DNA of 5,186 bases, from IMG/VR virus record IMGVR_UViG_2667527592_000010; one strand, written 5' to 3'. Positions 395-2,866 of this stretch are shown in pieces. How positions within the stretch are numbered: position 1 is the stretch's first letter; the number at the start of each line of letters is the position of its first letter. The translations under genes were made by a program, and so were the position numbers. A model generated the notes under the pieces. The model made no database searches. It was not told where the DNA came from and saw only the letters and a list, made by a program, of their open reading frames with translations. Source of the DNA: a virus. Its lineage: Duplodnaviria; Heunggongvirae; Uroviricota; Caudoviricetes.

Positions 395-2866
395 ATGAGT
401 AAAGTCTTTATTTGCGCCGCCATTCCGGACGAACAGGCAATAAAGGAAGAAGGTGCAGTTGCTGTAGCCACTGCCATTGAAGCCGGTGACGAACGCCGCG
501 CCCGTGCCAAATTTACCTGGCAATTCCTGGAGCGATATCCGGCTGCTCAGGACTGCGCTTATAAATTTCTTGTCTGCGAGGATAAACCCGGCATGCCCCG
601 CCCTGCTATCGACTCCTGGGATACCGAATATATGCAGGAAAACCGCTGGGATGAGGAATCCGCTTCCTTTATTCCGGTCGAACCAGAATCCGATCCGATG
701 AACGTCAATTTTGACAAGCTGGCCCCTGAAGTACAGAACGCTGTCATGGTTAAGTTCGGTACATGTGAAAACATCTCCGTTGATATGGTGATTAGTGCAC
801 AGGAACTGTTGCAGGAAGACATGGCAACATTCGACGGACATATCGTTGAAGCGTTGATGAAAATGCCAGAAGTTAACGCCATGTATCCGGAGCTTAAGCT
901 GCATGCCATCGGGTGGGTTAAACATAAATGTAAGCCTGGTGCCAAATGGCCCGAAATTCAGGCAGAGATGCGCATCTGGAAAAAACGTCGCGAAGGTGAA
1001 CGCAAGGAAACCGGAAAATACACGTCTGTTGTTGATCTCGCCCGCGCCAGAGCCAATCAACAGTACACTGAAAATTCAACAGGAAAAATCAACCCGGTCA
1101 TTGCTGCCACTCATCGCGAATACAAGCAGACATGGAAAACACTGGATGACGAACTGGCCTACGCTCTCTGGCCTGGTGATGTGGATGCCGGAAACATTGA
1201 CGGCAGCATCCATCGCTGGGCAAAAAATGAAGTTATCGACAACGACCGCGAAGACTGGAAGCGTATCTCGGCATCAATGCGCAAACAGCCTGATGCCCTT
1301 CGCTACGACCGCCAGACTATTTTTGGCCTTGTCCGTGAACGTCCGATCGACATTCACAAAGCCCCTGTGGCACTGAACAAATACATTACTGAATACCTGA
1401 CTACAAAGGGCGTGTTTGAAGATGAAGGAAGAAATCAGAGCGCAACTGATACTCTCTCGTCGCCAGTACCAGAAACTGATGCAGTGGAAACGGCAATTCC
1501 GGACAACGAAAAAACCGAATGCGAAGTGGAAGCCGAACCATCTGTAGAGCGTGAGGGACCGTTCTACTTCCTTTTCACCGATAAGGACGGCAAAAAATAC
1601 GGTCGCGCAAACAAACTTTCTGGTCTGGAAAAAGCACTGGCCTTGGGAGCTACGGAAATCACAAAAGAGGAATACTTCGCACGTAAAAACGGCACGCACT
1701 CAGGTTCACAACAAAATACTGGTGCATCTGACACGACCACACAACCAGAGCCGGTAAAAGTTACCGCTGACGAAGTAAACAAAATTATGCAGGCAGCCAA
1801 TATCAGCCAGCCTGACGCCGATAAGTTGCTTGCTGCCTCTCGCGGAGAATTTGTTGCAGGGATTAGCGACCCGAATGATCCGAAATGGGTGAAGGGGATT
1901 GAAACCCGCGATTCTGTAAACCAGAACCAGCAAGAATCGGAACAGAACGACCAGAAAGCGGAACAAAACAGTCAAAATGCGTTACAAAACGAGCCTGAAA
2001 CGAAACAACCTGAGCCAGTAGCGCAACAGGAACCGGAAAAAGTCTGCACCGCCTGCGGTCAGAGCGGTGGCGGCAACTGCCCTGATTGTGGCGCGGTGAT
2101 GGGCGACGCAACATACCAGGAAACATTCGATGAAGAGAATCAGGTTGAAGTTCAGGAAAATGATCCGGAGGAAACGGAAGGCGCTGAACATCCACACAAG
2201 GAGAACCCTGGCGGCAATCAGCATCACGCCAGCGATAATAAAACTGGCGAGGCGACAGATCCCTTAATTAAGGTGAATGGTCATCATAAGCTCACATCCA
2301 CCAGCAGAGCGGGGATTCATCTGATGATCGACCTTGAAACCATGGGAAAAAATCCCGATGCCCCGATTATCTCAATAGGCGCAATATTTTTCGATCCACA
2401 AACCGGAGATATGGGACCGGAATTTAGCAAGACCATCGATCTGGATACTGCTGGCGGAGTCATTGATCGTGACGTCATTAAATGGTGGCTAAAGCGATCA
2501 CGTGAAGCGCAGTCTGCCATTATGACCGATGAAATCCCGTTAGATGATGCACTACTGCAATTGCGGGAATTTATCGACGAAAACTCCGGTGAATTTTTTG
2601 TTCAGGTCTGGGGTAATGGGGCCAACTTCGACAACGTGATTTTACGCCGTTCATACGAACGACAGGGTATCCCCTGCCCGTGGCGCTACTGCAACGATCG
2701 CGATGTACGCACAATCGTTGAGCTGGGGAAAGCCATAGACTTCGATGCCAGAACTGCTATCCCATTCGAAGGTGAGCGCCATAATGCACTTGATGACGCT
2801 CGTTACCAGGCAAAATACGTTTCAGCTATCTGGCAAAAACTGATCCCGAGTCAGGCTGATTTTTAA
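395..2866 (+). CDS. Large multidomain phage nuclease (823 aa): N-terminal domain of unknown function, central block recalled as RecE (exonuclease VIII)-like, acidic Q/E/N-rich linker with a Cys4 zinc ribbon, and C-terminal DnaQ-like DEDDh 3'-5' exonuclease domain
   Basis: Single uninterrupted 2472-nt ORF with GAGG (381-384) about 10 nt upstream of ATG 395 and TAA at 2864-2866. C-terminal motifs are visible directly: Exo I [9 protein letters not shown] (D646, E648), Exo II [11 protein letters not shown] (D745), Exo III [9 protein letters not shown] (H796, D801). The central block [30 protein letters not shown] (aa 476-506) matches my recollection of a conserved block in Rac RecE; this is from memory and unverified. 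Confidence 0.9.
   Translation: [823 protein letters not shown]
2306..2863 (+). other. DEDDh (DnaQ/RNase T-like) 3'-5' exonuclease domain within the 823-aa protein
   Basis: All three exonuclease motifs are present with normal spacing: D-x-E (nt 2330-2338), the FD motif (nt about 2618-2632) and H-x4-D (nt 2780-2797). Domain boundaries are approximate. Confidence 0.75.

Follow-up and report, generated by a model that had tools for sequence, protein, structure and literature searches.

A RecE-like early protein of an Escherichia coli prophage with a predicted DEDDh exonuclease domain in place of the PD-(D/E)xK nuclease

Introduction

What does a predicted 3′-to-5′ exonuclease domain do at the end of a phage protein whose centre resembles that of RecE? 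The gene that raises this question lies at positions 395..2866 (+ strand) of IMG/VR record IMGVR_UViG_2667527592_000010, a 5,186-nucleotide stretch of tailed-phage DNA (hereafter the window, meaning the whole stretch that was analysed). According to the list of open reading frames (ORFs) of the window it encodes an intact protein of 823 amino acids (aa), exactly as an initial annotation of this DNA, made from the letters alone, had described, and the gene product is an early protein of a lambdoid E. coli prophage. In recombineering and direct cloning, RecE and RecT are a standard tool. The isolated nuclease domain of RecE does not behave like the full-length protein, and the role of the first ~560 residues of RecE is unexplained (PMC11611040).

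Here we describe the window protein, from sequence comparison, as a three-part mosaic of a YdfE-type N-terminus, a Rac RecE-like centre and a C-terminal DEDDh exonuclease domain. Its ~600-aa N-terminal plus central part is an exchangeable carrier, of which the window protein is the DEDDh member. The initial annotation had anticipated much of this, and its DEDDh identity, RecE-like centre and sharing of the scaffold all stand; its RecE-type N-terminus and its exchange of nucleases only have to be given up.

Results

A predicted DEDDh domain in the place of the RecE nuclease

The complete mosaic gene (395..2866, +) has the architecture YdfE_N + YdfE_C + Rv2179c-like, as judged from the ORF list and from the Pfam hits precomputed for an identical protein, namely YdfE_N (PF27430), YdfE_C (PF27432) and Rv2179c-like. 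PF27430 and PF27432 are absent from the local Pfam copy, and both hits come from the precomputed set. A single-sequence AlphaFold model of the window protein was unusable (mean predicted local distance difference test score, pLDDT, 36), and statements about fold rest on a relative, P0137, which was predicted with a 47-sequence alignment to a mean pLDDT of 73, with domains at 80–90.

The C-terminal region, aa 638–823 (2306..2863, +), is assigned to the DEDDh (DnaQ-like) exonucleases of the Rv2179c / T4 DexA family through PF16473 (Rv2179c-like 3′-5′ exoribonuclease domain). The Pfam match spans aa 642–813 with an E value of 6.3e-65 and 218.6 bits (cut-off 27), and covers model positions 2–177 of 177. 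The three DnaQ-like motifs quoted in the initial annotation are indeed present, as IDLETMG (aa 645–651), a second motif at aa 740–750 and HNALDDARY (aa 796–804). Residues D646, E648, D746, H796 and D801 align to D7, E9, D119, H186 and D191 of DexA, where the glutamate is printed as E12 in a legend of PMC12153337 but is placed at position 9 by the DexA sequence. The alignment points to a DEDDh exonuclease domain with all catalytic residues intact, and the 3′-to-5′ polarity is predicted from family membership. The sole PDB sequence matches for the domain are T4 DexA chains 8kel/8ken (E 9e-5; 29% identity in the alignment), and no exoribonuclease chain is found among the PDB sequence matches at E up to 0.01. 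PADLOC returned a weak, generic DEDDh match for the protein (E 1.3e-4).

The same kind of domain is also found by itself. Salmonella phage 118970_sal3 (L005 5995–6564) has a stand-alone 189-aa DEDDh protein that is 57% identical to the window domain; its gene occupies the same slot immediately before the integrase and is annotated 'endodeoxyribonuclease'. The DEDDh domain thus exists without the carrier at the same genomic position. In tblastn, the DEDDh domain alone is matched in hundreds of further phages (Vibrio, Pseudomonas, Klebsiella).

The centre of the protein, aa 262–625, is homologous to residues 278–591 of K-12 Rac RecE (E 8e-63, BLASTP with the whole protein). Within this alignment, aa 468–625 and RecE 449–591 have 101 of 143 aligned residues identical (71%), and 357 of 428 positions (83%) at the DNA level. 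The weak part is aa 262–345, with 23% identity; it makes up a helical central block A (aa 261–345; 1175..1429, +) that is weakly RecE-like by BLASTP (RecE 278–360), is found in most family members and is helical in the P0137 model at a pLDDT of 80–89. The RecE-homologous block itself (aa 455–625; 1757..2269, +), defined by the identity to RecE 449–591 and a partial PRK09709 match, contains a conserved segment at 477–506, a Q/E/N/P-rich stretch, a CxxC...CxxC and an acidic tail. It was this conserved segment that the initial annotation had likened to Rac RecE, and BLASTP confirms that aa 477–506 matches Rac RecE. The four-cysteine motif (C551, C554, C562 and C565; 2045..2089, +) is shared with RecE, where it reads CNACGQTGGDNCPDC, and its spacing suggests a putative zinc ribbon. 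A homologue search with the central block gave near-identical partial E. coli entries only.

The junction is well delimited on both proteins. RecE homology stops at '...TGEATDPLI', ~15 residues before DEDDh motif I; on the RecE side, residue 591 is the last of the aligned stretch, and the PF12684 PD-(D/E)xK match begins at 615 (615–850). By these borders, the DEDDh domain occupies the exact place of the PD-(D/E)xK 5′-to-3′ nuclease of RecE. The window protein lacks the C-terminal nuclease domain that RecE has at 564–866: it has no PF12684 match in Pfam and was not matched by phmmer seeded with RecE 600–866. It also misses the threshold of the NCBIfam RecE equivalog (NF007259, PRK09709), scoring 283.7 bits against a cut-off of 1269 over aa 447–626 only (model positions 440–603); K-12 RecE scores 1830 bits.

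A YdfE-type N-terminus and a constrained mini-domain

The N-terminal part had been expected to be RecE-like, which did not prove correct, since the first ~260 residues are a YdfE module and have no match in Pfam to PF06630, the RecE N-terminal Exonuc_VIII family, which K-12 RecE has at 2–178. This module (aa 1–260; 395..1174, +) is identified by PF27430 YdfE_N, phrog_5943 and phrog_2082, and aa 1–256 share 93% identity with the K-12 Qin pseudogene ydfE. Profile comparison of the YdfE-type and RecE-type N-termini gave a weak result (pairwise E 0.008, probability 5%). In the AlphaFold2 model of P0137, N-terminal residues 1–200 adopt a confident alpha/beta plus helical fold.

In K-12 Qin, ydfE (L006 3079–3999) is cut by IS2 (IS2E) after residue 256. 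This truncation leaves K-12 without the DEDDh part, which fits the published statement that K-12 has no DexA homologue (PMC12153337). The K-12 DLP12 pseudogene exoD was considered as a C-terminal remnant of the window protein and rejected, as no BLASTP similarity was seen.

A mini-domain which we call cenB (aa 380–440; 1532..1714, +), with the pattern GPFYFLF...R.NK...EI..EEY, was delimited by alignment and by the ratio of nonsynonymous to synonymous substitution rates (dN/dS). It falls within a gap of the K-12 RecE alignment. No other part is as well conserved across the family or under as strong a constraint (dN/dS 0.087), with invariant columns at G398, P399, F400, Y401, G407, R412, N414 and K415 in alignment A2. 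The P0137 model predicts a beta-beta-alpha-beta-alpha order for it, with a pLDDT of ~88. Weak PHROG matches (phrog_6784) suggest that cenB may occur in other phage proteins too.

One carrier, several C-terminal types

Relatives were collected by searching aa 1–637 against 50%-identity cluster representatives, with domains assigned by phmmer/jackhmmer seeds and checked with Pfam; C-terminal types were counted among representatives of at least 600 aa. The DEDDh type is present in five of these (for example P0121 and P0129) and the PD-(D/E)xK type in 12 (P0131, P0192). A third type of ~265 aa, which is Rad52-like as judged from the model described below, is present in 14 (P0137) and has no Pfam, NCBIfam or PDB sequence match, and a fourth, with no recognisable enzyme domain, in four (P0126). 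The proposal that the scaffold pairs with different nuclease chemistries is therefore supported, since the same scaffold is found with DEDDh and with PD-(D/E)xK domains. A swapping of nuclease modules only does not hold, since the commonest partner among the distant relatives is the Rad52-like annealase domain.

The carrier N-termini come in two kinds, YdfE-type or RecE-type. P0129 has a RecE-type N-terminal and middle part (phmmer E 7e-121 and 1e-170 versus K-12 RecE 1–450) and a PF16473 C-terminus, and the 689R5 phage protein carries its DEDDh domain on a RecE-type N-terminal and middle part as well, at an attachment site shared with the window prophage. P0383 is YdfE joined to PF12684, and P0353 is YdfE joined to a ParB-like helix-turn-helix (HTH_ParB, PF17762).

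The gene that follows goes with the C-terminal type. The PD-(D/E)xK carrier is followed by an overlapping RecT gene, as K-12 RecE is by recT, and the Rad52-like carrier by a Sipho_Gp157 gene to which PHROGs gives the label 'Mu Gam-like end protection' (phrog_253). Both the DEDDh carrier and the fourth-type carrier are followed directly by xis-int. In P0126 (L096 5001–7109), a ~250-aa C-terminal domain matches nothing characterised (phrog_26058), with xis-int directly after.

The third C-terminal type resembles Rad52

A motif in the third-type domain looked Rad52-like. Foldseek of the third-type domain of P0137 against viral models gave 20 matches at E up to 1e-3 (best 7.5e-13), and those with names are called Rad52/59/22, RAD52-like recombinase, single-strand annealing protein or ERF. 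No match was obtained with Foldseek against the PDB, nor in sequence and profile searches of the PDB, and Pfam and NCBIfam are without a model for this domain. When its profile was aligned to RAD52 40–182 with hhalign, the expected register was recovered but weakly (score 21.3, pairwise E 0.017), with one of 150 shuffles reaching that score. On the basis of the predicted structure, we conclude that this C-terminal type has a Rad52-like annealase fold.

P0137 (L009 8001–10370, Enterobacter hormaechei) and P0271–P0374 have the NCBI name 'exodeoxyribonuclease VIII' and consist of the YdfE carrier and a Rad52-like C-terminal part of ~265 aa. The hosts of such scaffold-annealase proteins are Enterobacter, Klebsiella, Citrobacter, Pantoea and Kosakonia. 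With a Rad52-like predicted fold and no nuclease domain, these proteins carry an 'exodeoxyribonuclease VIII' label that looks like an annotation error.

Prevalence, selection and naming

The gene is matched in 4799 of 5426 complete E. coli genomes (about 88%), and in 3533 complete genomes the match covers at least 80% of the query (full length). All 80 IMG/VR copies are intact, with 78 of 823 aa and two of 830 aa. Their overall dN/dS is 0.22, and the individual values are 0.16 for the N-terminal module (aa 1–260), 0.09 for the mini-domain (aa 380–440), 0.18 for the DEDDh domain (aa 638–823) and about 0.8 for the linker (aa 346–379). Purifying selection acts on the gene, which is intact.

Databases already contain the protein together with its domain calls, and copies are named there as 'exonuclease', '3′-5′ exonuclease' or '3′-5′ exoribonuclease domain-containing protein'. 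The initial annotation had suspected that such proteins might be filed as 'exodeoxyribonuclease VIII', and deposited records do carry that label, with the NCBI pipeline (PGAP) now mostly using '3′-5′ exonuclease' or 'exonuclease'. In the literature searched, we found no description of the protein architecture, of the function of ydfE or of the scaffold-annealase fusions.

A prophage locus without an annealase gene

The prophage is integrated at tRNA-Ser(CGA), adjoining mtfA. The tRNA gene, which is the attachment site, lies at 4206–4295 on the − strand (tRNA call) with mtfA beyond, and the host flank (4160–5186) is 100% identical to E. coli chromosomes. Upstream of the exonuclease gene are the 3′ end of dicB (1–114, gene calls), which overlaps the start of ydfD, and ydfD itself (DUF1482, PF07358; 111..314, +; Pfam, and gene calls in L012 and L011). 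The mechanical ORF list starts the DUF1482 ORF at 57 (85 aa), and in other gene calls its start corresponds to position 111 (67 aa). Directly downstream, as had been claimed, Pfam identifies a DUF4224 excisionase-like gene (2925–3128, +) and a tyrosine integrase (3128–4153, +). Rfam and promoter/terminator scans of the window gave nothing besides the tRNA.

In a contig with an identical protein (L011), the early-left order is cI-like repressor, ydfA (DUF1391), ydfB, ydfC, dicB, ydfD, the gene, DUF4224 and integrase. The same gene order is seen in K-12 Qin, phage mEp460, phage vB_EcoS-689R5 and E. coli 08-00022, and no annealase is annotated in the early regions of these four. Neither the window nor the full L011 early-left operon holds an annealase gene, so that the earlier remark on its absence extends upstream over the whole operon. 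The partner scan covered 84 loci (80 from IMG/VR plus another four), including up to 10 kb of upstream DNA in each, and tblastn found no RecT, Bet, lambda Exo, Gam, RecE-nuclease or Rad52-like match in them, with Erf and Sak4 seeds outside the query set. There is no adjacent recT in L001, L003, L004, L011, L097 or the 80 IMG/VR loci.

Beyond mtfA (L011 13995–22472, L001 17995–30472) lie a tRNA-Asn, a second integrase and a yersiniabactin island (ybtS, ybtX, ybtQ, ybtP). Two mobile elements thus stand side by side at neighbouring tRNA genes.

Discussion

Taken together, we consider the protein to be best explained as a constrained mosaic early protein whose carrier delivers a 3′-end-removing DEDDh exonuclease, without a phage annealase; we give this account somewhat less than an even chance of being right. 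The DEDDh enzyme would take nucleotides off 3′ ends. DNA is the likeliest substrate, since the nearest relatives with a known activity, DexA and its E. coli homologue EcD, both degrade DNA in the 3′-to-5′ direction (PMC12153337), and every other identified effector on the carrier is a DNA-transaction module. The carrier would bring each effector, be it the exonuclease, the RecE nuclease or the annealase domain, to a common place or partner, probably the ends of double-stranded DNA or a factor of host recombination or replication. Since the gene lies in a repressed early-left operon, expression from this repressor-controlled operon, and hence the action of the protein, should follow induction. 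It would then shorten 3′ tails or break down linear DNA with no annealase of the phage involved, and an enzyme that works in this way would not be a resection enzyme of the Red/RecET type.

Several points weigh against this explanation. The Pfam family takes its name from an exoribonuclease, and the substrate may be RNA. The fourth-type version has no recognisable enzyme domain or partner gene, so the carrier may do the main job with the C-terminal domain as a mere accessory. Recombination depends on 3′ tails, which a 3′-to-5′ exonuclease would destroy, so it is not obvious how such an enzyme could promote it. Moreover, the 84 loci of the partner scan are close relatives (92–96% identity) and not independent, and the scan did not use Erf- or Sak4-type seeds.

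A role in conflict or defence, in which the DEDDh domain degrades foreign nucleic acid (T-even modified DNA) or host defence DNA (retron multicopy single-stranded DNA, 3′-ended single-stranded DNA), is unlikely in our judgement but has several observations behind it. The protein would then serve in exclusion or anti-defence and not in recombination. DicB protects against some phages, and dicB stands in the same operon. Plasmid-borne EcD is reported to digest T4 DNA and to protect against T4 ('HREX'; PMC12153337), its start MIDTET is equivalent to M644-IDLET of the window protein, and a preprint attributes a block of RNA phages to DEDDh exonucleases of prophages that have auxiliary domains (PMC13344964); the 84 loci without a recombination partner also agree with such a role. 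However, the gene is far downstream in a repressor-controlled early-left operon and should be silent in a stable lysogen, the D169 loop for recognition of 5-hydroxymethylcytosine (5hmC) is absent and W152 is not cleanly aligned, the D90 equivalent is Asp, unlike the Ala of EcD, and the PADLOC match is of the weak, generic kind described above. Slightly less probable is that the domain is an exoribonuclease which trims the 3′ ends of host, phage or operon RNA, with the carrier targeting an RNA-protein complex. DEDDh enzymes often act on RNA and DNA alike, the K-12 Qin operon yields the processed small RNA DicF, the strong match is to a family named '3′-5′ exoribonuclease Rv2179c-like', and many NCBI copies are named '3′-5′ exoribonuclease'. 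Yet the sole solved relative by sequence is the DNA exonuclease DexA, with no exoribonuclease chain up to the E value limit given above, and the other carrier effectors (PD-(D/E)xK with RecT, Rad52-like with the Gam-like gene, ParB-like helix-turn-helix) are all DNA-transaction modules.

The slot just upstream of xis-int, which is that of exo or recE, the shared RecE central region and the records labelled exodeoxyribonuclease VIII would all suit a canonical RecET/Red exonuclease, paired with an annealase elsewhere in the prophage and with DEDDh substituting for the 5′-to-3′ nuclease. DEDDh chemistry removes 3′ ends, though, and cannot make the 3′ overhang that an annealase requires. Since, in addition, RecT, Bet and Rad52-like genes are missing from up to 10 kb of upstream DNA in the 84 loci, none of the complete phage early regions examined has an annotated annealase, the PD-(D/E)xK form of the same carrier keeps its overlapping recT and the RecE equivalog cut-off is missed by a wide margin (283.7 bits against 1269), we regard this alternative as very improbable. 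Hardly credible is the idea that the gene is a relic in decay, left by a cryptic prophage and now without function, for which one may cite the IS2-truncated ydfE remnant that is all K-12 keeps, and the many defective prophages at the tRNA-Ser site (for example with a frameshifted integrase in L001). It is already largely refuted by the selection analysis, with dN/dS of 0.09–0.18 in the folded modules versus ~0.8 in the linker; furthermore, 80 of 80 IMG/VR copies are full-length, all five catalytic residues are kept, and the gene is in the phage mEp460 record and at full length in 3533 complete E. coli genomes.

Beyond the annealase-free exonuclease that we favour, one can put forward, tentatively and as a doubtful extension, that the ~600-aa YdfE/RecE-type region is an autonomous platform which delivers interchangeable DNA-end effectors to one target, with the DEDDh version as an annealase-independent pathway of opposite polarity. 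If true, this would explain the role of the long N-terminal part of RecE. Domain shuffling is common in phages; still, a swap series on the RecE carrier makes this old question testable, since DNA-transaction modules of at least four kinds are found on the carrier, every kind having a partner gene of its own or no partner, and such a natural series allows one to ask what a RecE-type carrier binds. The DEDDh form is common in E. coli and constrained, yet we found no paper on it. The 'exodeoxyribonuclease VIII' label on some relatives with a DEDDh or annealase-like domain is an error worth correcting.

Comparison with known systems

The window protein resembles Rac RecE in its central region, conserved segment, four-cysteine motif and acidic tail, in its size (823 versus 866 aa) and in the slot just upstream of xis-int. 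It differs in having a predicted DEDDh (PF16473) and not a PD-(D/E)xK (PF12684) domain, a YdfE-type N-terminus in place of PF06630, and no recT after the gene. With lambda Red (Exo/Bet/Gam) it has in common the early-left operon slot of a lambdoid phage; in contrast to Red, the 84 loci have no Exo, Bet or Gam similarity, the predicted polarity is opposite and there is no annealase partner.

YdfE is the closest in the N-terminal part, with the first 256 aa 93% identical and the same dicB-ydfD neighbours. The window gene is the intact form, in which the central and exonuclease parts missing from K-12 ydfE are present. The scaffold-annealase fusions such as P0137 share the YdfE_N + YdfE_C carrier (~40% identity over aa 3–455) and the operon slot; unlike the window protein, they end in what is predicted to be a Rad52-like annealase fold and have the Gam-like gene next to them.

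T4 DexA belongs to the same DEDDh subfamily and has all five catalytic residues in common with the window domain. DexA is a stand-alone protein of 227 aa, whereas the window domain makes up the final 186 of the 823 aa of its protein, and EcD is apparently stand-alone as DexA is, judged from its numbering and cloning primers. Two DexA insertions are absent from the window domain, including the D169 loop for 5hmC recognition, DexA W152 has no clean equivalent, and the residue equivalent to DexA D90, which is Ala in EcD, is Asp at aa 718 of the window protein. Among bacterial DexA homologues, 38% are in Escherichia (PMC12153337). The cloning primer of EcD (HAK9828821.1) gives the start MIDTET, whose equivalent M644-IDLET lies at window 2324–2341 (PMC12153337). 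The published EcD primers had no match in the loci compared, and a single viral-contig match is a chance one. From the primer comparison, EcD could be a domain-only or truncated ORF of a prophage exonuclease.

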